A stretch of 63,202 nt of DNA, the filler included, from Folioceros fuciformis (taxonomy: Eukaryota): the NCBI GenBank assembly GCA_049999805.1. It is 9 parts of 9 records of this genome, joined end to end, with 100 filler letters (N's around TTAATTAATTAA, not from the genome) between each part and the next. Parts side by side here need not be neighbours in the genome. Positions count along the whole stretch, not along the records: positions 42,719 to 50,930 come from JBNGIO010005713.1; 8 more parts are not named here. One strand, 5' to 3'. The first letter of the stretch is position 1, and each line of letters begins with the position of its first letter. Below, piece by piece: positions 7,111 to 51,071 of the stretch. A program made the translations under genes and the position numbers. The notes beneath the pieces are model-generated. The model saw only the letters and a program-made list of their open reading frames with translations. It was not told the DNA's origin and did not search any database.

Positions 7111-7273
7111 ATATTTAGGGAGGTCACATATTTAGGGAGGTCACATATTTAGGGAGGTCACATATTTAGGGAGGTCACATATTTAGGGAGGTCACATNNN
7201 NNNNNNNAGGGAGGTCACATATTTAGGGAGGTCACATATTTAGGGAGGTCACATTTACTGAGGGTGGACTGTA
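7111..7273 (-). mobile_element. End of a pogo-like Tc1/mariner element or MITE with a 17-bp subterminal tandem array
   Basis: Minus strand reads TA|CAGTCCACCCTCAGTAAATGTGACC, followed by (GTGACCTCCCTAAATAT)n. TA TSD plus CAGT..CCTC..TAAAT resembles pogo/Emigrant TIRs. The other end is not present. Confidence 0.6.
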
Positions 7274-8223: not shown

Positions 8224-8623
8224 ATGGCTTTACTTGATTTCTTCTTCATTTACATTTTGATATTTGATGTCAAGCCTTTTGTGCAAGCGAGTCTTGATTC
8301 TGTAAAATATGAGTGCAATCATACTCCTTATGGTGATGCATCATCGTTTCGCAAGCGCTGTGGAAAACATTTTGCAAGATCTAACCAACAATGCGTATGA
8401 GCCTGCTTCAAATTTGCCTAGTTATAAAAACTATCAGCTTATCGAAAGCAATTCATGTGTTTATGAGAACGCTTATTGTGAAGATATAGTTTACCATGCT
8501 TGTAAACAATGTGTGATGGATGCAATCCAAGTTTTGAGGGCTATGTGTGGGAATGTGGCGGGAGCTAAAATTCAGACAAGTGGTCTCTCATGTTTTGTAA
8601 GATATGAGGAATACATTTTTTAG
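8224..8623 (+). pseudogene. Secreted Gnk2/DUF26 (stress-antifungal) single-domain protein with a +1 frameshift at 8347-8349 (pseudogene or sequencing error)
   Basis: ATG 8224 gives signal-peptide-like MALLDFFFIYILIFDVKPFVQA-SLDSVKYECNHTPYGDASSF. Removing one T joins it to ASAVENILQDL...AYCEDIVYHACKQC...MCGNVAGAKIQ...CFVRYEEYIF*, a ginkbilobin-2-like cysteine pattern. Confidence 0.85.
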
Positions 8624-8811
8624 TTAGTCATTATATTATTATATGAGTTTCGAGGAAAAATATACATAGATGACCAAGAAATAAGAAATTCTTTCGGTAC
8701 TACATTCTTTGAGTCTCATCAACTCTTTTGTTGAGGTTAAGTCATGTTTGTAGCACTATTTGTGTTTGTGTTTGTGTTTGTCTTTGTGTCTCAAGAATAA
8801 AGATAGATAGA

Positions 8812-8998
8812 GAGTACAAGGGAATTTGAGAGCTTGCCCAACTTGCTCTATTCTATGTCAGCAAACTTAAAGGCAGTACAAAGAAATTTGAGAGCTTGCC
8901 CAACTTGCTCTATTCTATGTCAGCAAATTTGAAGACAGTGCAGAGGAATTTGAGAGCTTGCCCAACTTGCTCTATTTTATGTCAGCAAATTTGAAGAC
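8812..8998. repeat. 62-bp tandem repeat x3
   Basis: AATTTGAGAGCTTGCCCAACTTGCTCTATT at 8823, 8885 and 8947. Confidence 0.92.
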
Positions 8999-9031
8999 TT
9001 TTGGTAGATGTGAAGTTGCCATTTTTCGCCT

Positions 9032-9156
9032 CTAGGATTTTGAGATGGAGTTGACCCCATATCGATGACATTTCTGTTAGCCATATGGATTATTAGGATT
9101 TTGAGATGGAATGACCCATATCGATCACAATTGTGTTATCCATATGGATTATCAGA
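9032..9156. repeat. ~60-bp degenerate direct repeat x2
   Basis: TAGGATTTTGAGATGGA..TGACCC(C)ATATCGAT..CCATATGGATTAT occurs twice. Confidence 0.75.
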
Positions 9157-10363
9157 ATCTGTGCTATATGTACAAGGGGTGTAATAAAGGGCAAGCCCCT
9201 TCTGTGTCCTCGATTCGAAGGAATCTTCCTCGAATCTTACGTTGCATGCCAAAATTGGATATAGAGCTTTACAGTACACATGTATTTGATTTGTTGCCTT
9301 TTAAAAGTCCTTCATGGTCATGCCTTCCTCAGGAGAAACCTGACGCCGTGGTCGAGCAGGACAGAAGGAAGCTTAGTAAGCGACAAGAATATGGGCCACG
9401 CCATGTTCAGATGCTAGAAGGGGATGAGTGTTGGGGGGTGGGGCCGGCATGCTTCCAGCGTAGAGTTCGATGTATGTGGATTGCTTGTGTGGCTAGCCAA
9501 TGGCATGCGGTCGGAAAGGATGTATGGAAAAGCCCGTCTTGGAGGGCTTTTGCCTCCGTTGACTGGTAGCACGTGGTTTCAGTCAATGAGCCCTCCAGAG
9601 GTTTCAAGCGTGAAGGCCGTTGCTGGCTCCTCCAGTTGTGAAGAACAGGAACATTGGTTGCTGACTCCTCCAGTTGTGAAGAACATTGGTGATCGGCCTC
9701 CACGGAGAGCGGCCGATGTGCTTACCCTGCTTTGAATCCGATCCTTGGACGACGACGTGGAGTCGAGCCAGTGCAGTAAAGATGCAAGCCTAGCCTGTAA
9801 TCATAACGAGATGTTGTCGTAGAAATGACAGAACGTCATTCATCTGATGGCTTCTTTCATGACGCGACGAGACGAGGTGCTGATGCGTGGACAACATTCA
9901 TGATCACGCTCACAGATCTACCCACTTCTTAAAAATGCAGCATTCCGTGGCGTGCACACGGAGCACTGGCTCCTTCAGAATTCTCAAAATCGAATGGATT
10001 GGGCCCAGATATGTGCGTAATCTGCTCTGCGTTGTTAGTGATAGGAATCGGAGTGAGGCCGGGACATCGGAGTGAATCCCACCCCACAATTGGACGGGAT
10101 TTCGGACTTGCAGGGACTGCGTGCCAGGAAACTGCACGCTTTGCTGCGGTAGCTCATAATCAGCGAGGACATTTATTTCTCTGGAGCGCAATCTGTGCGC
10201 GTGCTTTGTACTTCGGACAGTGACTGTCCGTTTGTAACATGGCAAGACTACTACATATTGGCTTGCATCGCACACAACACAAGCCTACGATTGGCGTGCA
10301 TCGCACACAACACCACACAACACCACATCACACCACGCAGGACGCAAAGAAGGGATGTAACAC

Positions 10364-11182
10364 TCAGAAGAATGTACTGAAGGACCACGAGTAGACGAAA
10401 TTGTTTTCCGTGGCGAACCCAGTGGCAGAGGTAAATCCCACATACGAGCTCGGGTTGACGATGCTTGCCAAATCGAAAGACTTGTAGGAGATGAGACGCG
10501 TTGCTTGAGATTTCTTGGCGGGCGCCTTAGCCGCAGACACAGTCAAGACGTGCTTCTTGGCGTTGTAATCCACCCACACGGTCACCTTCTGCGGATCGTC
10601 ACTCTCGACGACGAGACTGTCGCCGGTGGCCGTGGCAACGGACACGATGCTGTTGACATCCAAGCCGAAGTGGGGAACTGAGGGGTCGTCGAAATCCGTG
10701 TTCTGGAAGGTGTCGATCTCCACCGCAACCGTCTTGATAGCGGGGTCCCCGTTGGAGTAAACGTTGGGGTCGAAGATCCCCAAGTACTCCCCTAGATCGG
10801 ACACGGCGGCAGCGGGCGTGGGCTTGATCACAAACGCCAGCCCGTCGCCGATCGTATTTCCATTGTCCGGGGTGATGGCGAACGTGAAGCTGGTGCTGAA
10901 GGAGGCGGCCTTCTTGGTGTGGGGGTCGACGAAGGAGACGGGCTTGGTTCGGAACACACCTCCCGCGCTGTTCTGGCTGGGGGTCGGGCCCAACAGCGTC
11001 ACGTAGGAGCCGTTGCCCGCGAAGGCCGCACTCGCGCTCAGTGTGATGCCCGACTTGGCGTTCCACTTGGTGACCCTGAATTTCACAGTTGGAGGCCCAG
11101 AGTTCAGAGCCTCACTGGACACGACGCAAAGGAGCAGAGCCACAAGCACACACTGGACCGAGGAGGCCAAGGAGGAAGCCAT
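10364..11182 (-). CDS. Secreted legume-type (L-type) lectin, intronless, no kinase domain
   Basis: ATG 11182 starts MASSLASSVQCVLVALLLCVVSS (signal peptide). Motifs ASFSTSFTFAI, GDGLAF, GEYLG, VAVEIDTFQN..DDP..PHFGLDVNS, VWVDY, YVGFTSATG and VYSWSF are present. Frame is open and GC3-rich. Confidence 0.95.
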   Translation of the reverse strand: MASSLASSVQCVLVALLLCVVSSEALNSGPPTVKFRVTKWNAKSGITLSASAAFAGNGSYVTLLGPTPSQNSAGGVFRTKPVSFVDPHTKKAASFSTSFTFAITPDNGNTIGDGLAFVIKPTPAAAVSDLGEYLGIFDPNVYSNGDPAIKTVAVEIDTFQNTDFDDPSVPHFGLDVNSIVSVATATGDSLVVESDDPQKVTVWVDYNAKKHVLTVSAAKAPAKKSQATRLISYKSFDLASIVNPSSYVGFTSATGFATENNFVYSWSFSTFF

Positions 11183-12127
11183 CACGTCTGCTCTAAACGT
11201 TGGTGCTGCTGGGCTCTGGGCACCGGTGTGGCTCCTGCATTCCATGCCCCGTCCCTAAATATGCACCAGGGAAAGCTGATGGTCTGGGCATGCACGGCGG
11301 AACTGGCGCTACCGGGTCAACTTCGTCAATGGCAAGTATTTTACACCCAGCTGGTGTGCAGCCTTATACTATTGTATCGTTCTCCACGGTTCCAGACTTC
11401 CGCCCATAAGAAGAACACTGCATCAGGTACGGCCTGGCGCTCTCTTCATGCGGCGCCGAACATGGCAACCTTACGCTTCCGGTCCCCAGGTCATGTCTGA
11501 ACGCACCGTAGCGGCCCAAGAGATCGAGACACGCAAGGAACCTGGTTGCTAAGGGACAACGAGGAGGGTTACACAGCATTCACGTGGGGGCGGGATATCC
11601 TGAAGCACGCATCAGATAGCATAAGGCACCAGGCCGGGCGGTCTTGCTTCATGTCAAGACCAGGGTCAGGAGCTCCATCAAGGCATGGCACCTTTTGGCC
11701 ACCGTCATCCAGCTGTGCAGGAAATCTGCAACTTGTTCTAGGGAAAGCTTGACTTGACCACGGACTACGGCGACAACCCTCCAGTTGTCCAGCCACTGCG
11801 TTGCTGGATCACTCCCGGAATGCCCCTGCTCCAACTTTGAATCCGACTCAGCGTGTTCCAAGTTCTGGCCAATAAGAAGCAGCATCTTCTACACTGCAAA
11901 ACGCGACAAGTCCATGATTGTGTAAGTCTGCTGGGATTGGAGACGTGGGTCAATGTAACTTAGCCATGTCCAGATCACTCTCCGTGTGGACAAGACACTC
12001 CACTACATACATACCAGGGCAGCTGGCAACAAGATCTACGTCACCTTTCTCTCCTGTTAGAAAACTGATGTACGTTCGACCTTGGAATATACATACCTTC
12101 GAAAACTGATACACCTTCGACCAGCGA

Positions 12128-18311: not shown

Positions 18312-18722
18312 AACCCTAAACCCTAAACCCTAAACCCTAAACCCTAAACCCTAAACCCTAAACCCTAAACCCTAAACCCTAAAACCCTAAACCCTACACC
18401 CTAAACCCTAAACCCTAAACCCTAAACCCTTAAGCGTAAACCCTGAACCCTCAACCCTGAACCCTCAACCCTACACCCTAAACCCACAACCCTCAACCCT
18501 CAACCCTCAACCCTCAATCCTTCACTCTTAACCCTTAACCCTTAAACCCTTAAACCCTTAAACCCTTAAACCCTTAAACCCTTNNNNNNNNNNAACCCTT
18601 AAACCCTTAAACCCTTAAACCCTTAAACCCTTAAACCCTTTACCCTTGACCCTTTACCGAAAACCCAAAAACCCAAAAACCCAAAAACCCAAAAACCCAA
18701 AAACCCAAAAACCCTAAACCCG
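18312..18722 (-). repeat. Arabidopsis-type telomeric repeat (TTTAGGG)n at the contig start, grading into variant repeats
   Basis: CCCTAAA units at 18312-18430, then blocks of CCCTCAA, CCCTTAAA and CCCAAAAA. Confidence 0.95.
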
Positions 18723-21446
18723 TAAACCAAAAAAAGCAAACTCTGCCAGTTCCCGGGGCCTCTGCTCATGATGTGGACTCCACATACTCCCCTTCTCACT
18801 TGTTTGCGTCCTTGTCAACTGCTGATAATATTTTTTCACCCACCAGCCATTAACCCTGGTTGGCAAGTTAGGGCCGTTGAGGTGCTGTAGTTGGATGGAT
18901 CCATTCTCGTACACTTCTAGCACCCTGTAAAGGCCCCATCCACCTGAATTGCAGCTTGCCTAGAAAGTGTATGTACCTATTGTCATATAATAAGGCCAAA
19001 TCTCCAGGCATGACATGCTCTTGTTTACGCAACTTCTAGTCATGCCATTTCTTTCTCCTCTCATGGACATCAAGGAAAACAGCCAAGGCCTGTTCTCTAT
19101 CCTTATCATGGTGCACAAAATTGGTTAGCCTCTCCAGTTGGCTCTCCTCCATTGGCAATCGATTGCTCTCCTACATTCTCAAGGTGGATACCTCAAATTC
19201 GATGGGCATGACCGGTGAGTGTCCATAGGTGAGGTAATAAGGGGTCTGCTGGGTAGTAACCTTCTCCGTGAGTCCATTGGCCTTAGGGTTGTAGGGAGTG
19301 GTCTTCCTATGACTGATATTGAAATATTCGGTCATGTGCTTGACCACTTCATTGATGAAGTGAGTCCCCCTATCACTCGCCAGCTCCAATGAGCACCCAT
19401 ACCTCATGATGATTTGCTCAAACAAAAATCTAGCCACCACATTTGCTGTGTCCACGGGCAAAGCTTGAGCCTCCACCATGCGTGTGCAGTAGTCGGTTAC
19501 CACCAAGATGTATTGGTTCTGCCTTCCCTTAGACTTGGGCTGAATTGGTCCTACAAAATCAATCCCGCACTTCTCAAATGGTGCTAGGGCTAGGATGGGG
19601 ACCAATGGCCATTGTGTGGTCCTAGTAGGCTTCCCCACCCTTTAGCATGCATCACACCTCTTGATGAATCCTCCAGCATCAGCATGCATTGTTGGCCATC
19701 AATACCCTGCTGCCAGAATTTTTCTATAGGTCACATGGGCTGCATAATGCCCCCCAGCCTCTCCCTCATGTAAGGAGCTGATAACTTGCTCCACTTGGTC
19801 AGGCTTGACCCACAAACGCTCCACGCCATCAGCCCTTTGCGATACAGCCTGCCCTTGCACTTAACGACTAGTCTTGTGAAGTACAAGAACAGCCGCTGCT
19901 GCTGCCATGAGAGATCAGCTGGAAACTCCCCCATGCCTAAAAAATCAGACACCTCTTGGTAGGAAGGCTTACGGAACCCCTTCTCCCCTTCTCATTTGGT
20001 GCTGCACCTTCACCTCTTGGCAGCCTAGCATTTGGTTGGGCCCTCTCCCTCTCCACTAGGTCTGCTGAAAATGCCTCATCCGGAAAATCATCTTCTTGGT
20101 CTTGAACCACCTTCTTTGTCTTCAGCCTTGACAAAAAATCAGCATTCACATGCCTGCGCCCTTCCCTTGTTTCCACGGTGAACGTGAACTCTTGCAAGAG
20201 AAAGATCCAGCGGGCTATGCGGCCCGATAGGTCTGCCTTGTTGACCAGGTGCTTGAGAGCAAAATGATCAACGTGGAAGACAAACTCATAAGAGAGAAGG
20301 TAGTGGCAAAATTTACGACATGAATAGACCATGCCAAGTGCCTCCTTCTCGGTTGTGGTGTACTTGCGCTCAGCCTCCGTGAGTTGGCGTCCAGCATAGT
20401 AGATTGAGTAGTCCCTCCCCTTCTCATCCTGCTGGCTAAGGACTGTCCCAATGGCAATGGCTAAAACATCCACGTACACATGGAATTTCCTATCCCAATT
20501 AGGTCCCTTGAGGGTTGGTGCTGTCACAAGGGTGGTCCTCAAGTCATGAAATGGAGCCTCCCTCTCCTCTGTCCATTCCCAAGATTGCTCCTTCCTCAAC
20601 AGGTTGTCAAAGGAGCAGCCGTCTAGCAAAATTGGGCACAAAACGGCGATAGCACCCCACCATTCCAAGGAATCCACGCAGCTCCTTAAGTGTGGTTGGG
20701 GCCCTCAAGGCAGCAACCACCTTCACCTTGTCTAGGGTTTAGGGTTTAGGGATGCTATCCAACTTAAATGCCCCTTGCTGAAATTCTGTGACCTAGCAAG
20801 ATCCCTTCAGCCATGCCAAAATAGCATTTCTCCGGGTGCAAACAAAGCTGCATCTCACGGCACTTGGCCAAGCATAGCCTTAGGTGCTCCAGATGCTGCT
20901 CCACCCCTCTAGACACACAAAAATCATCTATGAACACCTCCAAGAACTTGTGAAGGAAATCCTTGAAGATCTTGTACATGCTGCGCATAAAGGACCCTAG
21001 TGCTCTTATTAGCCCAAAAGCACTCCTCTTGTAGGCAAATGTCCCCCAATCAGTTGTGAAGGCTGTCAATGGCCAGTTACTCTCCCTTAGAGACAGCTGA
21101 TAGTATCCAGAATAGCCATCCAAAAAGGAGTAAATCATGCGGCCTGCCACCAAATCCAGAATGTTATCAATGAATGGCAAGGGGATATGATCCTTCTTGG
21201 TAGCTTTGTTCAGCCTTCTCCAGTCCTAGCACACCCACATCTTCCCCGGCTGTTTCTTGGGCACCACCACGATTGGGGCCACCCAATCTAAATTCACAAT
21301 TGGAAAAATCACGTCTGCCCTCAAGTACTGCTCCAACTGCTCCTTTACCTTCATGGAGAACTTGGGATTCAGCTTGTATTGTGGAATTCGGACGGGAACA
21401 GCTCCTGGCTCCAAGTAAATCTTGTGCTCCCCCCACTCCTTGGGAA
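18723..21446 (-). mobile_element. Ty3/Gypsy non-chromovirus (Athila/Tat-like) RT-RNase H-integrase with PPT and start of 3' LTR, degenerate
   Basis: Motifs WVAPIVVVPKK, YSFLDGYSGYYQ, VFIDDF, YTTTEKEALGMV, GIDFVGP, SDRGTHF, and GPY..YENGSIQL..TRVNG. PPT GAGAAGGGGAG at 18787-18797. LTR starts TGTGGAGTCCACA at 18784. Confidence 0.9.
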
Positions 21447-24382
21447 TGATGAAAATCTAGCCTTGCTCTTAGATGCAAATCCCAGAATGTAATTGAATTA
21501 TAATGAAGTAAAGTACAAGCCTTTATATAGGCTAGGTGGTTGAGGTGGTTGAGGTGGTTGGGCGGTTACAACTATAAGTAGTTGTAACCAAAAGTGGTTG
21601 TAACCATTAGTTGTAACCATAAGTGGTTGCAACTACTAACTACCTAGAATAACTACTAGGTAACTACATTATATGGTAGCATCTACAATCGCCCTAATGA
21701 ATATTGCCCTATACTACCTATATTTTATCACTCCCACTCACTATGAATGTAGGGGTGAAAAATAGCTTCAAAATGAGTCTACTTAGGCTAATAGACTCCT
21801 ACTAGATCGAAAGATATTAGCTTAAAACTTGAGCTAGTTGAAAAATAACTTAACTCCAAGGAACCTGGAAAGAAATATATTCAAAGCCTTGCAAACAAAT
21901 TGGTGTGGTATACTGAGACGGGGCTGCTGTGCAGAGCTCCATCAAAACTTTGCCATTAAGAACTCCACCCTTGGATGAGTACCGGGATGGGGGGCCTGAT
22001 GCAAAGCTCTCCTCTTTTGAAATCAATGATTTAAAGTGGATGGTTAAGCTGCCTGCTCTTGGATCAGCACCGGGATGGGGGGCCTGTGAATGGACCCCCC
22101 CCATTAAAAATAAATAAGGTGTGGCCCGAAAAGTCCAATGGGATAAGCCCAAAGCGGGCTGATCCACGGGATGTGTCGGCTGGGGCCGCCTGATTGGCGG
22201 CCATAGGGGGCCGGTATGGCCATTGGCCGGCCGCACCATGCTGCCGCGCATGAGCCACGGCCTACGGGGAGAAGCCATCATTTACGACGCTCTCTCCGCA
22301 TCTCGATGCTCATCTCTTGCTCCCTTCGGTGCGCCCCGTGGTGCTCCTGTTTTCCACTGCGCCGCATCTTCCGCTGCACCTTGCTTCAACCATTGCGCCG
22401 CGCTCCTGGGGAATAGCCGCGCAATCTGATTTGTTGCGCTCACCGACAGAGACCCTTGCCGCGACGCCTGACGGCAGCCGTCGGGCTGCCAGCGGGGATG
22501 AGGTCGCAATTTGTTGAGGACCACAATTGCCCGCCTCAGAATACTAATTAATGTCTCTGTTGTAATATGTGCAAAATTGCCATCCTGCCAAGTTGTGCGC
22601 CGGCGCGGTTGTGGTTTCATAAAATCTTGGTGTATTTTTGTAGATTGGAGGCACATTTGTGCACAATGGCACGTCTAAAGGGTGAGTGGCCGCCTTTCCT
22701 TTTCTTTGTTTTTTTTTCAGTTTTCTTTAAAACTTTATTGTGGCAAGTCCCCGTTGTGTGGAGGAAGGTCCCCATGCCCCCCCCCGGTGCTCCAAATGAC
22801 GGGAACATAAGAAAATTGGCACGCACCCTGCGCATGTCCTATAGGAAAAAGAGAGTAGCAAGAAAATGCCGAGATGCCCGATTGCGTGGTGAGAAAATCC
22901 CAAAAAAGGGTCTAGGTCATAGTATAGAAGACCCAAATTTTAATGTGGAGTTCCTCCAAATGTGTGCAAATGCTGCAAAGATGGTTGAAAATGTGGCAAA
23001 GGAGGAAGAAGAGGACTTGATAGTAGTCCAAACTCATATCCAAAATGCCGAAGTCGTTGTCGAGGAAGTAAAAAATACGGGTAAGTAAACCAAAAAACTT
23101 TGTTAAAAATAAAAGCATAGTATTTGTTGTTGTAAATACTAATAATTGTTGATGTAGATATTCCAAGGCAAATAATATCTCCCACTGTCTCCAAAAGTGG
23201 GAAACCATCAAACGAAGACTTAGAAGCCATATCTTCGGAGGAATCCCATGTGAAAATAGTCCCCTTGAAGATGTGGAGGCTATAAAGACAGAACCAATGG
23301 TAGCAAATTGGAGTAAAAGTAAGTAGGAAATGATAAAAGTAAGTAGGAAAATAGGTAGGGGTACCTATGTAGGCTAAAAGCTAACATTCTTCCTAATGAA
23401 AACTACTTCTTTTGCAGGTGTAGATAAATGTGTAGGCACTGACCATGTAAGGATGGCTATACCACTAAAAGTAACCCAAGGAAAAACAAATGGAAAAAGG
23501 AAAGTACTGAGTTCCTATTTGCCACCTAGGAGTCTTTCAAGAGCTACTTACATAATATTTCCTGAGGAACCAGATGACCATGAAGCTCCCAAAGAATATG
23601 TATGTGACAAAAAGGGAATAAAAATGATGTGGTTAGGTGCATCCCCATGCGAAGAATATGAAGGATATACGAAACACTTATATAGTAGGTTTTCTAACCA
23701 CTTAACTATATTATTCCTAATCATTTTTATCACTTAACCAATTGACTTTGTTGTAGGATCTTTTTGGGCATTAGAGAGAGAAGACAAGGAGTACAGTGAA
23801 GACTACTTAGAATTAGAAGCTGAACTTGAAATGCTAGATGACCTGTGTGGTTTATAGTTAGGTTCTCTTGACTAGTAGGTCAGTCTTAACTTTACGTATT
23901 CCTAAAGTTTTCATATGTTTAAGATGTAAATCTCTGCCTAATGACTTGGTTAATGAATCAGCTGGATTTTCCTGGGTTTGTATATAATTTATATCTATTG
24001 TTTTATTTTCTGACATCTCACGTATGTAATGATATTCAACAGCTATATGCTTTGTCATGGAGTGGAAGACAGGGTTTCTAGCTAAGGCTATGGCTCCCTG
24101 ACTATCACTGAAAAGAGGTGTGGGCTCATTTTGAGAATAACACAACTCACTCAATGCAAACCTGCTCTAGACTATATCTTTTGAGACTGAGGTTGGAATT
24201 CTATACTCTGATTCAGTACTTGACAAAGCAATAGTAGGTTGTTTCTTACTTGACCATGAGATGGGAGCACCTCCAAGTAGTAGAATGTAACCTGATACAG
24301 ATTTTCGACTTTTAGGGTGTCTAGCATAGTCGGCATCGGCATATGCAGTTAATTGTAACTTGGATAGGCCAGGTGTATGACT
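21447..24382 (-). mobile_element. Ty1/Copia 3' end (RNase H, ~2.1 kb post-pol region, PPT, 284-bp 3' LTR) inserted in the Gypsy RT region
   Basis: RNase H ORFs 24167-24424 (YADADYA..KKQPTIALSSTESEY) and 23858-24154 (KHIAVEYHYIRE). PPT TGAGTGGGAG at 21731-21740. LTR 21447-21730 has TGATA..CATCA termini. Confidence 0.88.
22774..23857 (+). CDS. Predicted 4-exon antisense accessory gene inside a Copia element (~278 aa; one 1-nt deletion in exon 2)
   Basis: Exons 22774-23080, 23158-23318, 23418-23684, 23757-23857. Introns GTAAGT..TAG (77 nt), GTAAGT..CAG (99 nt), GTAGGT..TAG (72 nt), all phase 1 with CTAAT/CTAAC branch-like motifs. Stop TAG 23855-23857 abuts the pol stop at 23858-23860. Confidence 0.7.
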
Positions 24383-26235
24383 TAGCGTAAATAGGATCGA
24401 CAGGCTAGCATAGGAAAGAAACATAAATGAGTGAGAATTAATTAATATGTGTGAGTGTTTAGGGTTTTATGGCCGTGTCCCGTGAACCTGTACGACAGTT
24501 GACGGGTAACGATTCGTTAGGGCACGTTTCATGCCCGTTCCTATAACGTGTGTATGCTTAACCTAAATCTACGCTTAACGCCGAGAAGCGGGCTATCCTA
24601 GGGCAACCATCTCTCGTTACCCCCACTTAGACCGCATTCCCGCCGTTGTGAACTCACTTGCGCCGTAATCTCCGGCTGTCCTCACCTTTTGCACACACTC
24701 CGTCTGCAGAACGGATTGCAGCTATGCTGAGTGTTGGCGGCCTTTCTCACTTGGATGGAAGCTTCGTCCTTTTGCTCTTGCTTGCGCTGCTGGTTGGCGT
24801 CGCTCTCTAGGAACATAAACGATTTGCCGAGAGGTGTCCAGTGCCCCAGAGGACTCGCAGGTCTTCAATGTAAGACAGGAAGGAGCGGCTTCTTCAAAGG
24901 ATGAGATCACTGCATGGAGAGTTGCGGCAGCTCGGGGGGTTGCCTTCTTGTTTTGATGCAGAAGACTTCCACAAGTTGTCGCCGTGTCCGGGTCTCGCAA
25001 TGATTCTTGAGTCCGCTCAGAGTGATGCAGAGGGTAACCTGGTCTTCAGGTTCGCTCCCTTTTGGAGGTGCCCTGAAGCAGCGGCAGAGATGGCAGGCTT
25101 GTAGTTGATTTACCTGTACACGCACAAGAGTGAAGCAAGGTAGCAATTCCCTTGTGTGCCCATCTGCCCCCACTGTTTGTGACAAGGCTAACCCCACTGC
25201 GGGTGCGTGCTCGTGCTGTGCAGCTGTGCAAGTGTCAAAAGCTTGCTTAAGTGCCGAGCCCCAAACCCTTGCAGTGAGCGGTGTGACGGTCCTTTGGAAG
25301 TGGCTTCGTGAGTAAATCTGCTAAATTATGCTCTGTGGGTACGAAGACTAGATCGATTTCCCTAGAGGCTACAGTCTGCCTAATGTAGTGCTGCTTGACA
25401 GCTATGTGTCGGGTTCGTGAATGATGCACTGGATTTTTGGACAAGGCTATGGCTGACTGGTTGTCGCAGTATACAGTAGTAGCTCCGAGTTGAGGAAAAC
25501 CCACAGATGCCATGAACAGGCGGTTGTAAACAGTTTCTTGAGTAGCTGCAGTTGCAGCTGTATATTCCGCCTCTGTACTGGACAGGGCTACAACTGTCTG
25601 CTTCTTCGATGTCCAGTTGACCACACCTCCACTTAGCATGGTACAGTTGGCAGTGATGGATTGTCTGGAATCCTCATCTCCTGCCCAGTCTGAATCCGAG
25701 TAGCAGATAAGTAACGTCTAAAGTAAATTTCTGAGTAAAGGTCATAAGTAATCATGAACTTTTCTAGCATTTGCCTTACATAATGTGCTTGATGGCAGAA
25801 TATGCTTCCCTTATCAGGACTAATGCAAATTTGTATGCCTAGGAAGAAGGTGAGCTGTCCAAGATCTGTCATGGAGAACTCGGCCATGAGAATTGACCTA
25901 ACCTTCTTCATAATTCCTGGGGAGTTAGCAAAGATCAGCGCGTCATCAACGTACAAAGCTAAGATTGCAAAGTCCTGCCCATTTCTGTAGATGTACACAT
26001 TTGTGTTAGCATCACTTTGGACGAACCGTGGCTTGAGTAGATAGTCATGGATTTTCTGGTACCATACTCTCGGTGCCTGCTTCAAGCCATACAGGCTTTT
26101 CTTAAGTCTGCAAACCTTATGTGGTTCAGTTTTGCTGACGTAGCCCTTAGGTTGCGTGATATACATCTCCTCCTCGATTGTGCCATGCAGGAAGGCAGTT
26201 TTAACATCCATGTGCTGGATGTCCAGCTTGTGTTC
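24383..26235 (-). mobile_element. Ty1/Copia element (RT with internal deletion, RNase H, PPT, 237-bp 3' LTR with TA..TA ends) nested in the previous Copia
   Basis: ORFs 25633-26211 (MDVKTAFLHG, LYVDD) and 25247-25639 (KKQTVVALSSTEAEY). PPT AAGTGGGGG at 24620-24628. LTR 24383-24619 reads TAACG..CGCTA on minus. Confidence 0.88.
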
Positions 26236-26335: not shown

Positions 26336-28364
26336 ATTTTTGTAGGTTATGACTTGGAGAGAAAAGCTTTTCGATTGTATGACAAGGGAGCGAAGCGTGT
26401 CATAATTAGTAGGGATGTGATTTTTGAGGAAAATGGAGTTGCTATCACTAAGATTCCAAATGTGTCTATTGTGAATGATGATGATGACTTTACAGTGGCC
26501 CTAGAAGAAACAACAAGGGATGATGCTTGTATTGAAGAGAACAAGGGGATTTCTGATGAAGGAGAAGTAGAGGAGCAAGCACAAAGGCAAGAAATGCCTC
26601 CACCAAAGAGGTATCCGACAAGGGAGCGACGGCCACCTAAGGATTGGAGAGAAGGACCAGAGTTTGCTTCCATTGCTATGACACACGGAAGGGAACCATT
26701 GACTGTGGCTGAAGCTCTACAAGGGAAGGATTGCGAGCACTGGAAAGAAGCCATGGATGAGGAGATGAGGTCCCTTGAAGGTAATGATACATGGATGTTG
26801 ACAACATTGCCCGCAGGAAGGAATGCCAATTGGGTGTAAGTGGGTGTTTAGAATCAAGAGAAATGCAAGTGGGAAAATTGATAGATTCAAGGCTAGGTTG
26901 GTGGTGAAGGGATACTCCCAAGAGGAGGGCATTGACTACAATGAGACATTTGCACCAGTTGCCAAGTTTGCATCCATCAGAACCTTACTTGCAGTGGGAG
27001 CAATGTATGATTTGGAGATTCATCAAATGGATGTGAAAACAGCATTTCTAAATGGGGACTTGGAGGAAGACATTTACATGGAGCAACCCCAAGGCTATGT
27101 AGTTATGGGCAAGGAGAACATGGTTTGCAAATTGAAGAAAGCTCTTTATGGATTGAAGCAGGCTCCAAGAGCTTGGTATCAAAAGATTAACTCATATCTT
27201 TTGGAGCAGGGTTTTCGGCAATGCACATCAGATGAGAGCATCTACATTTTTGAGGTCTCCCAAAGTAAGGTAATCTTAGCCATATATGTGGATGATCTTA
27301 TCTTGTTGAGTCCATCTTTAAGCAGTATTGATAAAGTGAAGGAGATGTTGTCAAAGAAGTTTGAAATGAAGGACTTAGGGAACATCAACTATTGTCTTGG
27401 AATTGAAGTGCGGAGAGATAGGGCAGCACGTATCATCAGGCTTGGTCAGCAAGGGTATGTTGAGGGATTATTGGAGCGATTTGGAATGATGGATTGCAAG
27501 CCTATTGGGACCCCTCAAGACTTAGGTGTGAAGTTGTGTAAGGTTGACTACTCATCAAATGATGGGGAGGAGCATGAGATGAGTAACATCCCATATAGGG
27601 CAGTAGTTGGAAGTTTGATGTATGCCATGGTAGGAACACGTCCAGACATTGCAAAGGCAGTGGGAGTAGTGAGCCAATTTATGCAAAGCCCTGGAAAGCA
27701 ACATTGGATTGCGGTGAAAAGGATCATGCGATACTTGAGAGGTACAAGTGATATGTGGTTGGAATTCTCGGGTGGAATCAAATGCCATAATATTATTGGG
27801 TATTGTGACTCCGATTGGGGAAGTGATCTTGATGATAGAAGATCAACTACAGGATATACTTTTATTTTAGGAGGAGGTGCCATTACCTGGAATAGTAAGA
27901 AGCAACCCACGGTGGCCATATCGACAGTTGAAGCTGAGTACATGGCATCCACACAAGCCACCAAGGAGGCCGTATGGTTGAGAAAGCTCATGGAGGAGAT
28001 TGGTTATGAACAATTGCATCCGACCACTCTTAGGAGCGATAGTCAAGGAAGTATGGCCTTGATCAAGAATCCAGTGCATCATGCAAGGACAAAGCATATT
28101 GACATTCAACATCACTTTGTACGTGAGAAGGTGAAGTTATTGGAGGTTACCTTTGAATATTGCAACAGTGAGGAAATGGCTGCAGATTTCTTAACCAAGG
28201 CAGTGAGTAAGTTCAAGTTTGAGAAATGCAGGGGACTACTTGGACTGAAGCAAACTCAAGTGCGCTGAGTGGGAGTGTTAAGCATGATTAATGTTGATAT
28301 TAATTAGTGCTAATCCAGCTTATTGAGTTTGTACTAATTAGTGGTAAGAGTGATTAAGGTTATG
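26336..28364 (+). mobile_element. pol: Ty1/Copia integrase C-terminus, RT, RNase H, PPT and start of 3' LTR
   Basis: ORFs 26354-26839 and 26823-28268 (KARLVVKGYSQ, YVDDL, YCDSDWG, KHIDIQHHFVRE) are separated by a 1-nt frameshift at ~26828. PPT TGAGTGGGAG at 28266-28275. LTR starts TGTTAAGC at 28276. Confidence 0.96.
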
Positions 28365-42618: not shown

Positions 42619-43689
42619 NNNNNNNNNNNNNNNNNNNNNNNNNNNNNNNNNNNNNNNNNNNNTTAATTAATTAANNNNNNNNNNNNNNNNNNNNNNNNNN
42701 NNNNNNNNNNNNNNNNNNGGATGGGGGCGGCCGCAACCCCTGCCTCTAGCTCTAGCTAGGGCATGGCCTCCATGGCCGTTCATGCCAGCCAAGCAATCAG
42801 CCAGCCTATCATCAGACCCTGACCCCTGACACTGACATACCCAGATACCCGTTCCTATGTTCAAACCATTATTTTATTATTTCTATTATTTAATATTATT
42901 ATATTATTATTTAATCATTTAATAATTATATATCTTCTCACTCACCTCAGAAACAAGCGCACGCACACATGAATAGCAATAATCTGTTAGACGCCTTCCA
43001 CCCGCGTGATCTCCCACCTTAGATACGCCCTGGCGATCTCCATTCAGTTTTTTCACAGTCTCTCCAGTCTCATCGCGACCAGTCACTCATACACACCACG
43101 TCTCGTGCACCCCACACACATTACACACCTCACCTCCGGGGTCTCCCCAGGTTTGTTCTCTCTTACCCCCCTACTCGGCCACTCGCTCCCCCTCCCTCTC
43201 ACACACGTGCACGCCCGCGCCCTCCTTTCTCTGGTTCTTCAGTCTTCTTTCTCAGCGATGCTCCCTCATGGGCTCTAATTAACGTTGAGGAATGGTGAGG
43301 TACCGGAGCTAAGGGAAGAGGAGTCCCTTCCACTCCGCACTAGCGGATTCGGCTCCGACACCCACACCACCCCACGTGACCACCTCGAGGATACCTGGGG
43401 AGCTTCTCTCCCACTCGGCGAGGCTCCTCCTCCCGATTTGTCCCCGGACCTGATCATGGAGCGCCCACCACCTACACCCGCACCCCTGGTTGCTACGTGC
43501 GCTCGCTTGCCTGGACCTCCTATCCAGCAACGGCCATCGCTAGGTCCCTGCGAGGTCGACTGTTCGGCTGGTGCTTGCTGATTCCTTAGGCCTCCAAACT
43601 GGCCTCTTGTACACGGTGATGGCGGTTTTTCTGCCATAAAGTCTGTCAGGCAGGGGAGCTGCGCGCTCTTAAATCCTAAGCGACTTAGG

Positions 43690-45094
43690 TCCAAATAAAG
43701 CACGCTAAAAAAAATCCTATTCTAGCCTACATTTACTGTCCCCGTTTTCCACGCCGCTGGCGGCTTCCTCCTGGCCTTCGCGTGTCACCCCTTGCTGTTC
43801 CTCCTCTCGCTCTTCTGCCCCTCCGTTGGTTCGGCAGATCCTCCCAGAGGATCTCCACATCATTGCTGCTGCTGCTAGACCTAGCTGGCGGCGCAGGTGG
43901 GTCCCGCGGTTGTGGTCCACCACCCCTCCTCCTTCTCTGGTTGCTGAGAATAGCCACAGGCCCCCGTTCTACCCAGTGCTGGGCCTCCTCTTTCGTCAGT
44001 TCCTCCAGAACTGCCTCCGCATAGCAGTGGGGCAGTCCTTTCACCCACCATCTATAGTGGTAGAGTCCCAGGCGCGTCCTCAGCTGTAGGACGTAGCCCC
44101 GCATCCCTCCTGTGCCCATACGTACATACAGAAACAGCTTCAGAACTCTGGCCCCTTCTACATACAGGCCTGGCACATAGGAGGCCCCCTCCTCATACTG
44201 CAGCACAATCTGACCTTCTGTCATAACAGAGGTGCTTACCCCGTCCTCCCTTGGGCTACCTCGGGTTGCTCCCCCTCTTGCTGGGGTACCTGAAGGTTCT
44301 CTGCCTGCCTAGCTATTGCCTCCTCCGGCTCTATCCTCCTGGTACGGGTCACCCTCTTGGAGCGCCTAGGGGCAGGCGCCCCTACTGCTTCCTCCTTCGT
44401 TTCTAGGGTCACAGTTGCTCTTCCTCTACCAATTCTATGATCACCTCTTCCACTAGACATCTACAAGACCACTTAGACTCTCCATCTGAACAACAAAAGA
44501 AACTCCCAAGTTGCTCCCTAGCAATGGCGCGAAAATGTAGTGGCAAAACCCCGGGCGCTCATTGCCAACGGGTTCAACCTTTAGAAGCCATACTTATCCC
44601 ATTATCGTTGAGACATTGGGTTTCGTTCCCACGAAGGAGCGATGGGGTTCCTCGCTGCTATGGATGAAGGGTTGGACTCAATCAACTCGATGATGGATTT
44701 GAGGGCTGCCCTCCAGCTCCGATCAGGCGTGGGACAATCCTCGTTGTCCAATGATCGACTACACCTCTCTCGGTGCCCACAAATTCACTCTAGTCACTAC
44801 AACGACACTAACCTCTCAAATCTGCGACTTGCCTCACTCACTCACTCCAGCACCAGCAACTAGTAACAACACTACTACCTTCTACGCTTCCCTATTGACT
44901 CCCCCACTCGGCAAGAGTCATTAGACTAACACCAAAGAAGAGCATGTTGCCACCCACGATCCTACCAGACACCATGCAAGCATGGTAGGCACTCACTCCA
45001 GCCCTGTGAGGAAACAAGAATGACAGATCATAGGGCACGACACGAAGAGCACAATCAAGAATTAAAAAGACCCAGCCCTAAATTCTGGCCAACA
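43690..45094 (-). mobile_element. Athila-like element: 5' LTR, degenerate PBS, gag start fused to a non-gag ORF
   Basis: 44400-45000 is homologous to 62360-63000 (LTR end at 44536, MSSGRGDHRIGRGRA start at 44460). 43690-44400 is homologous to 55780-56560. The right boundary is approximate. Confidence 0.75.
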
Positions 45095-45099
45095 CTCCT

Positions 45100-45750
45100 T
45101 GATGCTGAAGTGCTTGATAATGCCATGTACATGGCCCATGGATGGCTTGCACATAACATGTATGCCTAGTTGTGTACCATGTGTGCATGTGAAGATGAAG
45201 GATGACATGTGGATGCATGTGACATGTCTAGAGAGAGGATGTATGTGTCATAGTGGATGTGAACCATGTCTGTTGGATGCATGTGAGGAGCAGCACCATT
45301 GCACATATGAACCGTTGTAGAGATATTCCAAAACAAATATAAAAATGATAAAATAAGAAAAGGACGAAGTAGGCTGTTTAGTTGGTTATTATTTGGTAAT
45401 AGACCAAAGGCCAAGGAGAAGTAGGATTATAAAGTGCCTACCATTGGTGCAAGGAGGCACTTCATCGAGAGTTCTTGGGGATTTTGTCTATATATGTAGG
45501 CTACCCAGCCATGGATTCTCGGATTGTTGATGTTTGTCTTATTCTAATGGATTGCCATACTTCATCCCTGCTATGTCTTTGTCTCCTAGAGGTTCTTGTA
45601 GTATGTTGCATTGTCAGGTTGGGAGAATTTTCCATCTTGATTTTACTTGTTTGCGGCCCTGGGCATGCCTCTCTTAGGCAGACCCAGCCCTTCTTGTAGC
45701 CTTGCTCTTAGTCATAGGCCAAGAAAAATTTGTGGCTAGGTAGGCATCCA
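45100..45750 (+). mobile_element. Possible LTR remnant
   Basis: Starts TGATGC and ends near GCATCC. TATA-like ATTATAAAG at ~45427. No TSD found. Confidence 0.35.
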
Positions 45751-45975
45751 GCTATGGGGCTGCTACGCAACACACTCCTACTCCACGACCTCTACCCCGC
45801 TCGCCCTTCGCACCACACCCCACCTTTGTCAACTGCGGCCCACCTTACGGGGTGGTACGCCCGTAGGACTCCTTCAGGACCCTGCGAGTCCGCTTTGTGC
45901 TTCAGCGTACCCGTATGTTTGAATTTCCAGGCAATCTGCCAACGAATCAAACCTATGTCGCCGGTGCCTCTAGGG

Positions 45976-47990
45976 TAGCGATACTTGGCCATATTGCTTT
46001 TCTAGGAGGGAGGTTTGTAACAAATTTAGGTAATTATAGATCAATTAAACATATGAAATTAATCACATTGTGTCAAGAATGCAATAATAATGTATAAGTC
46101 ATAAGAATAACTTAAGTCACCTGTGAAACGTTGTGACCTAATCAAACGACGTAACCCTAATGAAAAGGTATGTCTTTTAAAGCTCTTAACTTAACTAGAC
46201 TACTGAACCCTAATCATCTATCCAACACATGTATTCCTTTACTCCCACTTGTTGGTAATGATTTCTTGTCCAGTCTTCAATCTGCTAGTGGCTACTCGTG
46301 AGAGACTGTGGTTCAGCTGCACCTTCAATTTTGAGCTTTATGGCTATCATCTCCTGTACTTGGTTACACTCTCGCACTCCTGTCAATTCGGATCAAGATG
46401 CTACGCTCTAGTGTGAAGTCGACAGAGATGAGGTGCGCGTCCCTTATAACGCCGACCTTTTCATTTCATTTCTCCCATACTCTGAGCTGCCGCAACTCAA
46501 AATTGTTCTTCTCGTCACCATGTCTTCCTCATATTGCGATTACGAGCCCAATCCTAAGCGCCATCAGCCATGGGATTCCAAGGGACGGTTTGCCACTAAG
46601 ACAACTACCACTCTTGGAGCTTCGACACCAACTACTGCGAGAGATGTGAAGCGGGGAGTGGGAAGACCCAAGGGAATTACAAAGGAGTTCCTGGAGCGGC
46701 GCAAGACTACTGAGGCTATTGCGTTTAAAGCCGGCTACGACATGGGTTGCCCTTCTGCCCCACTTGCGCCTAAGGCAAAGGCGGCGGCTAAACGTCTTCC
46801 GAAGCCAAAGCAACCTGATTTTACCTATTCTAATGATGAGTCTCGTTCTGCTTTACCTGTTGTGTTCCCTAAACCTACTGACACAGATTGTGAAACAAGA
46901 ATTGTCAGTTGTGGGAATATAAAGCATCCTCGCTCAACTGTATGGTAAAAGGTGTGGCTAGGTTGTAATGAGATCACCATGAAAAGGGTTCACGTGCATG
47001 GCTGCAGAACCTATCCAAGTCATGTTGTTAGCATATACAGTGAGCATCTATGAACCTTTCTTGTTCTGGTTGCTCCTATTATTCTGTCTTGTGATGATAT
47101 CTTACGTTTGCTCCCACTTCTTCTATACAGGGTCTAACATAAGACTTGAAGAAGAAGCTGATCTTGAGTCTGAAGAACGGATTTCTTATGAAGAAAGTTG
47201 TCGCCGCAACTCTCCTAGATCAGATGAGAAAATTTTCTTCCCCTTCCAATAGTTATGGCCATGACTCCTACGAGGAAGAGAAGGAGTCCAAACCCGAGTC
47301 TACGCGTTCTAGACAGTTAGTGGACTTTGGCTACCCTTCTGACCATGGTAGCGTCAACTTGCGTTTCTAGGCCTTAGAGAATTATATTGAACTACTGCTG
47401 CTGTCGGATAAGAGAGCTTCTGACTCTCCCATCCCTAAGCATTGAATGTGTCTTTGGTGAGCATCTCTACTAAGTGCCTTTGTGAGAATGTCTGCTGGGT
47501 TGCTTTGTGTCGATACATACTCAAGTGCTATGGTTCCTGCTCCCACCAGTTCTCTTATATAATGATATTTGACTTCTACGTGCTTTGTTTGTGAATGAAA
47601 CACAAGGCTCTTGGCTAATGCCATTGAGCCTTGATTGTCGGTGTAGATAGTCGTGCATGTGGGGAGTGGAATCCGTACTTTTGAAAAGAGTAACCTGCAC
47701 CACACAATTTCCTTTACAGCTGCAGTTAACACCCTATATTCTGCTTCAGTACTAGATAGAGCAACTGTCAGTTGTTTCTTGCTAGACCAACAGATTGGTC
47801 TGCCAGCAAAACATAGCACATATGCAGAGACATACTCCGACTAAGCTTAAGTCCTGTGGGCAGAGGGGTAGAAGCGGACTTTGCATCCTTAAGGCCTAAC
47901 TGTTCAACGCTATCTATAAGGTAACGGGGCTGAGATATTGTCATTACACGAGCCTGCCTATTCCTTTGAATATGAATACATAGGCAACTC
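45976..47990 (-). mobile_element. Ty1/Copia 3' end (RT/RNase H with internal deletion, ~1.1 kb post-pol region, PPT, TA..TA LTR)
   Basis: RNase H at 47382-47819 (KKQLTVALSSTEAEY, KHVEVKYHYIRE). PPT CAAGTGGGAG at 46242-46251. LTR ~45976-46241 reads TAAAG..CGCTA on minus. Confidence 0.85.
46520..47370 (+). CDS. Predicted 2-exon antisense accessory gene inside a Copia element (AT-hook-like motif; premature TAA at 46946; possible frameshift at ~47230)
   Basis: Exon 1 46520-47039 (KRGVGRPKG; SRSALPVVFP; KVWLG). Intron 47040-47130, GTGAGC..TACAG, phase 1. Exon 2 RSNIRLEEEADLESEE stops at 47252, or at 47370 after removing one A. The pol stop is at 47382-47384. Confidence 0.65.
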
Positions 47991-50860
47991 TGTAAAGGGC
48001 CTAGGCATGTGTGGAGTGATTTCTTGCACCCAAGAACCACCAAAGGGCCACACATCCCCTTATTGTCATTGCAGTCTTATGAATCGCTCCCAAGGGAGTG
48101 AACTAGTGCCAAGGAACACTACCTATCACACTTCTACCTATCAGCTGGTCTATAGACTGCCCACACGCACACAACAAGGAGGCTAGTAGCCTAGCCTATC
48201 TTCAAATCAACTCGCACTCCAGATCTTCAATCCTCCAACTCTTCATGAGTCCCACTTCAGTCCTCCCTTTCTTCACTTCAGCTCACATAACTCACACTCC
48301 AGTTTCTCCAGTCCTTCAGCTTCTCATGCTTCCCACTCTAGTCTTTCCTTCCTCACTTCAGTACTTCACCCTTCACTTCAGCACACACTACTGCACCTCA
48401 GCAGCTCACCCTTCACTTCTATGCACTCCACTCCAACTCTTCCTCTCTTTGCTTCAGCTATTCCCTGGAAATTGGGACACGATGACTTCACTCCTTGCAG
48501 CCTTCAAGTGTAGTGTGGATACTAGGACTGGATAGCCCTCCTGGCTCACGGTCCTGTCCCTTCACTTCAGCCAGCCTGCGAATCATTCAGCCCTTGCGGA
48601 TCCGGCCACACGGATCTTGGTAGTCTTGGGATCCTCTACGTTCCCCTAGTGGCAAGGGAAATCAGGGCCTTGGTTTAGTCTCAATCGGCTCAACGCCCTA
48701 AGCCAGGAGTTCTGCACACAAGGTCCAGAGGAATCGCACCGTAGACAGCCCCCTCTCAATGGCAGGTCTCCCCTCTTATACTGCCTACCCTCTACCTCTG
48801 TCTACTAGGGTTAACCTGAATTAATTACCCTACCTCCTCTCTTTGACGTAACCAAGTTCTGACCTAAACCTGACCTAGGTATGACCTAACCTAACCTAAC
48901 CTAATCTATGTCTGACCTAACCTGGATCTGACCTAACCTAACCTAGGTATGACCTAACCTAACCTAATCTAGGTCAGACCTAACCTAACCTAGGTCTAGC
49001 CTAGACCTAACCTATCCTGACCTAGGTCTGACCTAAGCCTAACCTGACCTAGGTCTGACCCAAACCTAACCTAGACCTAACCTAACCTAGGTCTAGCCTA
49101 GACCTAACCTAAACCTAACCTAGGTCTAACCTAGGTCTGACCCAAACCTAACCTAGACCTAACCTAGGTCTGACCCAAACCTAACCTAGGTCTAACCTAG
49201 ACCTAACCTCAACCTACCCTTGCTTCTAATTGCCCATTGCCCCTTGACACCGTTAGCTACCCACAATTATCAGCCCCTCACAACTAAGCAAAGATCATGG
49301 GTGCCTCTCAACATCCCTCTCCCCTCCCGGGTCAGATCATCTTCCTCTGATTATCCTGCCTTCTTTCCCAGAGTCTCCCATCTTCAGGTCCTTCCCTCCA
49401 TCCTGCTGGCCGTGGCTGGCCAAGACTCTTGGTCCTTCCCTCCATCCTGCTGGCCACGGCTGGCCAAGACTCTTGGTCCTTCCCTCCATCCTGCTGGCCA
49501 CAGCTGGCCAAGACTCTTGGTCCTTCCCTCCATCCTGCTGGCCACGGCTGGCCAAGACTCCTGGCCCTGCAACCTACCCACCAAGCGCTCCTGAATAAGA
49601 AATTTGCCATCCTATCAACATAACCACCGCTGGGCTTCCCACCACGAGTAGCACACCTAGGCTAGGCCTTTGGCCTACAAGCAACCAGGGTTGCTACTCA
49701 TGGATGGAAAGCCGAATGTCACTTATGTCCTTAGCGGACCACCCTCCAAGCTGCTGGACTGGTCCCTCCAAGCTGCTGGATTGGTCTGCTGGACTGATGC
49801 CCTTGAGCGGATAACCCCAGGGCATTGCGTCCTGGCATGGCACACACCATCCATCATCGCCGCAATTAGCATCCAGCCCTTTGCCTATGGTAGCAAGTCA
49901 GTTCCAACCCACTAACCGCGGATGGCAAGCCGTATGCTAATTACGGCCACTGGCTGCCATGGTANNNNNNNNNNNNNNNNNNNNNNNNNNNNNNNNNNNN
50001 NNNNNNNNNNNNNNNNNNNNNNNNNNNNNNNNNNNNNNNNNNNNNNNNNNNNNNNNNNNNNNNNCCACGCCCCCCCCCCCAACGCCATCCCCACGCCCTA
50101 AGATAGCCTGGCAGTAGCCTACCACTAGTGTTTCAGTGTCAGGCTGTCATCCTTGGAGTGTCCCTCGGGCCACTCCCGTCTTCCCCCGGGCAACCGCTTA
50201 CTTGGCTGTTAGACCTACTGGCTGCCCAACCAGCCATCTAGCTCGTTTTCAGTTGCTAGATCCGGTCGAGACCATTCTGTCAAGCCTGAAGGAACAACCA
50301 TACAGAACTACCGATGGGGTCAGTTGATATGCACTGCACCTGGTTTGACCGGGATTTGGAACAAGCTGCTCTCCTTGGTTTGCAGTGCACTAAGTGCAAG
50401 TCCGTCCGTGCCTGGATGCTCTCGGATTCAACCGCTTATCCTCAGCCGCCGCCTGGATTCGGCTAGCACGCCGTGACTCCCCTAGCTCTGCTTCCAGCCA
50501 AACTGCGACCATCCCAGCTGCTCGGTCTCTGGTTGATCGGGACTGAATCCAATCAGCTCGCCTGGTGCCGAGTCGCTTGCCGTTTTCCTAATTCAGCTAC
50601 CTAGCTAGCCGACCAGACTCGACTGGCCAGCCTGCCTTTGCCTAGATCTGGCCAGGTGGCCCGCCCGTAGGCCGCCTACTGCCCGCTTGCAATTGGCGCG
50701 GGCTGGGTTGTTGACCAGACTCCTCATCGCCATCTCCAGCCAGCATCCCCCTTGTTCGGCCAGCCGTCACGGCTCATCTCGGTTGCTCGCGGTCGGCCAT
50801 TCGCCTGGCTAAGACAGCTAGCCAGGCCACTAGCCCAACCCCCCTCAGATCCACTTTGTC
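47991..50860 (-). mobile_element. 3' part of the giant LTR family, inserted in the Copia RT
   Basis: Ends ..CCCTTTACA at 47991. TATAAGAG at ~48773-48781 (minus). Colinear inverted homology with 35370-37420. A 44-bp unit occurs x4 at 49387-49562. Confidence 0.8.
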
Positions 50861-51071
50861 CCTAAAGAAAGTACTTGAAATTTGTATAGTCTAGCAGTAG
50901 CATATCGAAATAGTTAAATAGAATAAGCTANNNNNNNNNNNNNNNNNNNNNNNNNNNNNNNNNNNNNNNNNNNNTTAATTAATTAANNNNNNNNNNNNNN
51001 NNNNNNNNNNNNNNNNNNNNNNNNNNNNNNTTTTTCAACCAAAACAAACTACTACCCCAAACTTTGGAGGT

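Follow-up and report, generated by a model that had tools for sequence, protein, structure and literature searches.

Some plant Ty3/gypsy retrotransposons carry additional open reading frames (ORFs) in antisense between pol and the 3' long terminal repeat (LTR), a described class designated aORF-3R (PMC7264820, PMC11963269, PMC4093653); such ORFs are a recognised, functionally unexplained feature of these lineages. The carriers include Grande of maize with its gene23, RIRE2 of rice, Retand of Silene, PvRetro13 of bean and the fungal Boty (PMC7264820). An antisense ORF with a TRP28 domain was found in 97% of Retand clusters (PMC11963269), and in common bean an opposite-strand ORF2 was reported for 15 families, all of them Ty3/gypsy, while two Copia families contained sense env-like ORFs (PMC4093653). 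Pairing of antisense and genomic transcripts into double-stranded RNA has been raised as an idea for the aORF-3R class in a 2020 review, which also urges attention to antisense and spliced transcripts (PMC7264820). The present analysis concerns a window of Folioceros fuciformis DNA, meaning the whole stretch of 63,202 nucleotides (1-63202) that was analysed, and within it an antisense gene at 46520-47370 on the plus strand of contig 42719-50930, termed gene B, together with a partner at 22774-23857 on the plus strand of contig 18312-26235, termed gene A. The stretch 46520-47370 is interpreted here, with moderate confidence, as a decayed copy of an antisense, intron-bearing additional gene of a plant Ty1/copia family.

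Gene B fits the aORF-3R class by place and orientation and differs from it in superfamily, in its small size and in its introns. Shared features are the position between the pol stop and the polypurine tract (PPT), the antisense orientation, the lack of similarity to known proteins, the multi-copy state and a suspected nuclear or regulatory role. The initial annotation had called the gene the best candidate for an undescribed system, which is too strong given that the class is known in plant Ty3/gypsy elements (PMC7264820, PMC11963269). The Ty3/gypsy examples are of the Tat/Retand type, with ORFs of 200-900 amino acids (aa) in spacers of 3-6.5 kb, whereas genes A and B lie in Ty1/copia elements, would encode ~210-280 aa within ~1.1 kb and contain introns, a comparison made by description. 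Neither gene is a member of the TRP28 family of Retand (PF04195, Transposase_28; PMC11963269), as no Pfam family matched their exons at E<=1. SIRE-type Ty1/copia elements of plants likewise have an extra, env-like ORF in the interval from pol to the 3' LTR, but these ORFs are in sense and 380-790 aa long (PMC4093653), whereas gene B is antisense and shorter. In the open-access literature searched, antisense ORFs came up only for Ty3/gypsy elements, and Neumann et al. 2019 (PMC6317226) contained none of the terms looked up; a published Copia case may exist.

The features of gene B were read directly from the sequence (Table 1). Its ATG lies within a stop-free run of 178 codons (46412-46945), and the sense strand opposite holds only a 107-codon frame, the mirror of exon 1. 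The AT-hook consensus is a GRP core flanked by basic residues, and KRGVGRPKG in the N-terminal part resembles it; this string was unmatched in a Pfam scan, though motifs so short rarely score. Further along exon 1 are the motif SRSALPVVFPKPTD (46841-46882) and the residues STVW, followed by a TAA stop codon, directly beyond which the same frame resumes with KVWLG (46949-46963) and continues to a Tyr codon at 47036-47038. After 47039 a consensus-type donor was found (TAC A|GTGAGC), and the candidate intron ends in TTCTTCTATACAG|GG, with its acceptor, CAG|GG, at 47130|47131. Splicing would split an Arg codon after the Tyr in phase 1, joining frame 0 to frame +1, and the predicted product continues Arg-Ser-Asn-Ile-Arg-Leu-Glu-Glu-Glu. 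The motif SNIRLEEEADLESEE lies past the candidate intron (47133-47177). A long acidic frame overlaps exon 2 and is out of register with it, the break falling in a homopolymer stretch at 47229-47237. Interrupted once by an in-frame stop and once by a frame break, the copy of gene B in the window is a pseudogene. A 17-nt mini-intron spanning the TAA was considered by eye and rejected as lying below plant intron length.

The candidate intron is also marked by its composition. T makes up 44% of it but 25-28% of the exons on either side, and for genes A and B together the intron T content of 44% compares with 23-28% in exons. In both genes the limits of the jump in T content coincide exactly with good splice sites connecting two open frames, which is hard to get by accident. 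A run as long as the 178 codons of gene B arose in only 5 of 2000 spacer sequences shuffled by dinucleotide, and one as long as the 162 codons of gene A in 28 of 2000. Codon log-odds were taken from a table trained on 2930 codons of the window's transposon and lectin ORFs; by this measure the proposed frame was the best of six in seven of eight segments, although this score is biased to open frames by construction; the exception was the first 99 nt of gene B exon 2, where the frame of the long tail scored higher.

Gene B is read in antisense to the minus-strand RNase H part of a Copia pol and stands tail-to-tail with it, 11 bp separating the end of the long frame from the pol stop at 47382-47384. 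The product of 47385-47840 matches the C-terminal part of the RVT_2-bearing Copia ORF at 26802-28265 (39% identity, E 6e-31) and, besides that ORF, three other Copia RNase H parts; its identity to the RNase H part beside gene A (23897-24298) is 51%. By these matches the host of gene B is a Ty1/copia element, the reverse transcriptase (RT) itself being cut off by a nested insertion at ~48010. At this point the pol is interrupted by a high-copy element starting with TG, with depths of ~6,000-10,600 in the DNA runs described below from the bin starting at 47988 and many loose contig ends at 48010-48023; this element also appears in the run guessed to be RNA, at a depth of ~520-680. On its other side, gene B is flanked by a PPT-like purine run and the putative start of the 3' LTR, and it occupies a spacer of ~1.13 kb between the pol stop and the PPT. 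In two other Copias of the window the corresponding gap is ~35 bp (at 15166) and ~85 bp (at 25250), and a fifth runs off its contig; a long spacer with an antisense gene is thus present in two of the five.

Contigs of four public runs of the same organism were compared with 46000-48100 at 80% likeness in 30 bins. Related contigs numbered 335 in run X1 and 290 in run X2, both DNA and both covering 30 of 30 bins, 7 in run X3, and 13 in run X5, the last confined to 48010-48100. The run guessed to be RNA covered only 48010-48100 and so speaks neither for nor against expression of gene B. The related contigs were 80-99% identical to the stretch, with identities in X1 and X2 ranging from below 90% to above 99%. 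Depth was ~28-133 over gene B and, over RNase H, ~74-140 up to 47703 and ~200-280 in 47704-47845. The whole stretch is therefore multi-copy and the gene has a depth like that of RNase H, indicative of gene B being part of the repeated element. The depth of 111-291 in the bins of 46000-46283, against 38-66 in those of 46284-46496, rises as expected where an LTR begins. An antisense intron-containing gene between a Copia pol stop and a PPT, as the initial annotation had placed it, is supported by these data, in a multi-copy element. Direct reading also bore out the coordinates it had given, the ATG at 46520, the motifs and their gene A counterparts, the basic N-terminal motif and the phase-1 intron splitting an Arg codon after Tyr in both genes, and the location of the two genes on different contigs was confirmed. 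Its longer reading does end 11 bp from the pol stop, but is a frame separate from that of exon 2, which stops at 47250-47252. The in-frame TAA, the frame break and the unrelated N-terminal half described below were absent from that account.

Gene A was modelled in four exons, compared with two in gene B, and gives an intact reading of 279 aa. Its stop (23855-23857) directly abuts the pol stop of its own Copia (23858-23860), with a gap of 0 bp. The counterparts of the gene B motifs lie at 23537-23578, 23624-23638 and 23759-23785. The last intron of gene A, of 72 nt and 44% T, begins after 23684 (TAT A|GTAGGT) and ends at 23756|23757 (TAG|GA); it too is in phase 1 and splits an Arg codon after Tyr, the reading continuing Arg-Ser-Phe-Trp-Ala-Leu-Glu-Arg-Glu-Asp. 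The Copia pol beside gene A has an in-frame stop (24167-24169), whereas the gene itself is open over 279 codons. At 24467-26235 this pol appears to contain the nested insertion of a different Copia, whose minus-strand RT/RNase H (25250-26235) is followed by a PPT-like run near 25170 and then by an LTR. Directly upstream of the 5' end of gene A lie the pol and gag of a Ty3/gypsy element (19174-22281, minus strand), and the 3' LTR of the gene A Copia may therefore be displaced or interrupted.

Are genes A and B homologous? The spliced products align with a Smith-Waterman score of 47, over a stretch running from M/VWLG through Y|RS into the acidic tail. Shuffling attained this score 7 and 17 times in 2000 trials each, and block shuffling that preserves local composition 22 times in 3000; among 401 other ORF segments of the window, none attained it for A and two for B. 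The intron has the identical alignment column and the same phase, within a Tyr|Arg-Ser context, and the two host Copias are the closest RNase H pair among the five, with 51-53% identity against 37-47% for the others. Because the pair was preselected by position and the intron occupies the same column and phase, homology is judged the likelier interpretation, based on ~50 residues of marginal similarity together with the common place and intron. The proteins are far less alike than the RNase H parts of their hosts; if they are distant homologues, their divergence has most likely far outpaced that of pol. Alignment of the DNA is confined to the RNase H parts, and the antisense gene has a single collinear match of 25 bp (E 0.12).

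Several results weigh against the interpretation of gene B as the decayed copy of such an additional gene. The copy in the window has its in-frame stop and frame break, and the Copias of both genes are fragments with nested insertions, neither with both LTRs on its contig. With tblastn at E<=10, no link between A and B was obtained. Taken by itself, the pre-intron core falls short of significance at standard penalties (its score was attained by 1406 of 5000 shuffles; with laxer settings by 111 and 32 of 5000), acidic low-complexity sequence contributes part of the score of 47, and there is no relation between the N-terminal halves (score 21, attained by 2883 of 3000 shuffles). A search with phmmer of the 173-residue B reading, with X at the stop, against 1.84 billion representatives yielded no credible homologue. 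Among the variants between copies, of which 40 of 504 differences and 12 of 71 indels were listed, the listed differences in gene B fell 7/6/5 over the codon positions, with no third-position excess. The similarity claimed by the initial annotation is marginal against shuffles for the whole alignment and fails for the core at standard penalties, for the N-terminal halves and in tblastn. Its description of a conserved family found no intermediate homologue in protein, metagenome or ESM Atlas searches, and, given the stop, the frame break and the listed variants, its proposal of long vertical retention under selection is not supported.

The remaining variation is of mixed meaning. In RNase H the listed differences fell 7/5/0 over the codon positions, and the comparison with gene B gave a Fisher p=0.066. 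None of the 12 listed indels lies in exon 1, while seven rows fall in the 520 bp upstream. The codon-position and the indel hints on selection in gene B diverge, and both are weak. Related contigs that differ by one base in length at 47232 or 47237 account for a depth of 15.9+35.5 of 99.1 in X1 (about half) and 31.8+24.6 of 75.9 in X2 (about three quarters). As these length variants lie where the C-terminal frames lose register, the long reading of gene B is probably the older state. One near-identical contig, with 3 differences over 46859-47153, crosses the gene B stop. One X2 contig omits 147 bases, a multiple of three, at 46669-46817 in exon 1, and may represent an in-frame deletion variant.

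Searches for relatives were otherwise blank. Word-based protein searches with an exon of A and an exon of B gave no homologue, nor did the A exon against longer proteins. The sole phmmer match (E 1.4e-5) was a tandem-repeat protein aligned in 6 stretches and was judged spurious. Two metagenome scans gave 338 and 593 pattern matches, of which 0 were confirmed, and the ESM Atlas gave no usable match. Since protein libraries are probably poor in plant transposon ORFs, these blanks do not show that gene B stands alone. Single-sequence AlphaFold2 models reached a pLDDT (predicted local distance difference test) of 41.7 and 48.4, too low for fold comparison. An Rfam scan of the entire contig of gene B gave 0 matches.

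Other origins of the gene B stretch can be set against these data. It could be a fragment of a host gene, captured with its introns in antisense by a Copia ancestor or twice independently and carried as a functionless passenger. The genomic introns with canonical plant-like composition in both genes would suit such a capture, as would the unrelated N-terminal halves and the exon numbers of 2 and 4, and transduction is named among the origins of additional ORFs (PMC7264820). No cellular homologue was found in the protein searches, and the stretch is multi-copy, whereas transduced genes are usually present in one or few copies (PMC7264820). Moreover, place, orientation and intron point agree between two Copias that share only 51% identity in RNase H, as would suit an old feature that was retained, and the captured fragment is regarded as unlikely. 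An ordinary host gene merely beside a truncated Copia fragment would account for the ~600 bp of pol per contig and for the lack of a second LTR delimiting the element. It would not be expected to recur in hundreds of contigs of 80-99% identity at a depth like that of RNase H, nor to have a PPT-like run and a depth step of LTR type beyond gene B, nor to recur in the same arrangement at both A and B, and is considered very improbable.

It could also be that the spacer is non-coding, that its frames and GT..AG pairs are accidental and that the match to gene A is a product of alignment by eye. This reading draws on the non-significant core at standard settings and the blank tblastn, on the stop codon, the frame break and the missing homologues, on the low AlphaFold2 confidence (pLDDT 42 and 48), and on the lack of a codon-position signal in the 40 of 504 differences listed. 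Against it stand the rarity of the gene B ORF length among shuffles, the sharp rise in T whose limits are exactly those of consensus splice sites linking two open frames, and gene A being open over 279 codons in four exons. The A-B score, seen in 0 of 401 and 2 of 401 real segments, belongs to the only pair preselected by position. Chance is accordingly held to be distinctly unlikely. The decayed additional gene of a Ty1/copia family is the explanation that we retain.

How would such a gene work? Gene B, lying on the opposite strand, would presumably be transcribed from a promoter of its own within the 3' LTR or beside it, and its transcript would contain one short U-rich intron. In antisense-intron reporter cassettes, the intron signals are reversed in the sense RNA. 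By the way such cassettes work, the intron of gene B may have been kept through retrotransposition, as the sense genomic RNA would bear its splice signals only as the reverse complement. In the product, a basic N-terminal half bearing an AT-hook-like GRP motif would be followed by a middle part with Cys and Trp and by an acidic tail, a composition that fits a small nuclear nucleic-acid-binding or chromatin-binding factor. With the pol and antisense stops only 0-11 bp apart, an antisense transcript must enter the 3' end of pol, and it could serve both as mRNA and as a double-stranded RNA partner of the genomic RNA. By analogy with Grande, RIRE2 and Retand, the role of gene B may be to regulate expression or silencing of the element through the protein, the antisense RNA or both.

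Two more distant systems offer analogies. VANC proteins are anti-silencing proteins of Mutator-like elements and, like the putative product of gene B, are transposon accessory proteins that might act on their own chromatin; their carrier is a DNA transposon, unlike Copia, and the likeness is pure analogy. HBZ of human T-cell leukemia virus type 1 (HTLV-1) is produced from spliced antisense RNA. As in the arrangement proposed for gene B, the HBZ gene lies in antisense at the 3' end of its reverse-transcribing element, contains an antisense intron and has a nuclear product; it is named in PMC7264820 and PMC11963269. It differs from gene B in belonging to a vertebrate retrovirus, in encoding a bZIP protein and in having no sequence relation. 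Tentatively, and with more doubt than confidence, one may envisage a lineage of plant Copia elements in which a spliced antisense accessory gene, functionally akin to HBZ or Grande gene23, is conserved. The small nuclear protein that it encodes, basic and AT-hook-like in one part and acidic in its tail, would modulate transcription or silencing of the element; the gene would be fast-evolving, with an island of ~50 residues and one intron position linking the members. If true, it would be the first antisense accessory gene described for a plant Copia, and one with introns, and such accessory genes would have arisen in both superfamilies. At ~0.9 kb, the gene would offer a compact experimental case, and the antisense intron is a natural marker separating element-borne from processed copies. 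As the window contains one broken copy and one intact distant partner, their value is that of a lead only.

Table 1. Coordinates of gene B, gene A and the associated Copia features in the window.
Feature	Position	Strand	Basis and remarks
TATAA	46445-46449	+	by eye; possible element of an antisense promoter, 71-75 bp ahead of the ATG
Gene B exon 1	46520-47039	+	translation; 173 codons; in-frame TAA at 46946-46948
KRGVGRPKG, AT-hook-like basic motif	46649-46675	+	read in translation
Gene B candidate intron (GTGAGC...TATACAG)	47040-47130	+	read directly; 91 nt, phase 1
Gene B exon 2, acidic, frame set by the intron	47131-47252	+	stop at 47250-47252
Long acidic frame	47143-47370	+	11 bp between its end and the pol stop; register differs from that of exon 2
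Copia pol, C-terminal RNase H part and stop codon	47382-47840	-	ORF listing; matches to other Copias
Pol continuation in another frame	47771-48009	-	102-aa frame; ended at ~48010 by the high-copy insertion
PPT-like run AAGTGGGAGTAAAGGAA	46234-46250	-	read directly; ~1.13 kb downstream of the pol stop; function inferred
3' LTR start, partial	46000-46230	-	TGTGTTGG after the purine run, and depth step; limits inferred
Gene A, four-exon model	22774-23084, 23158-23318, 23418-23684, 23757-23857	+	GT..AG combinations enumerated; intact 279-aa reading

The window itself consists of at least nine short contigs joined together, so features on different contigs have no known distance or order; the joins appear as paired runs of 44 N with 12 bases between them, along with gaps of 100 N and 10 N. 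Only one clear host gene was seen in it, an open frame at 10364-11251 on the minus strand that encodes a legume-type lectin domain (Lectin_legB, E 1.5e-52) and probably belongs to a gene for an L-type lectin receptor. The contig of gene A starts, at 18312-18740, with telomere-like arrays of 7-8-nt units (AACCCTTA, AACCCAAA and CCCTAAA variants) of plant type; by these repeats and the lectin gene the sequence was judged to come from a plant. At 48867-49240 and 49387-49606, on the contig of gene B, a satellite-like array with an 11-nt period and CCTAACC/CCTAGG words is succeeded by a 44-bp tandem repeat of 4 copies that are 95-97% alike.

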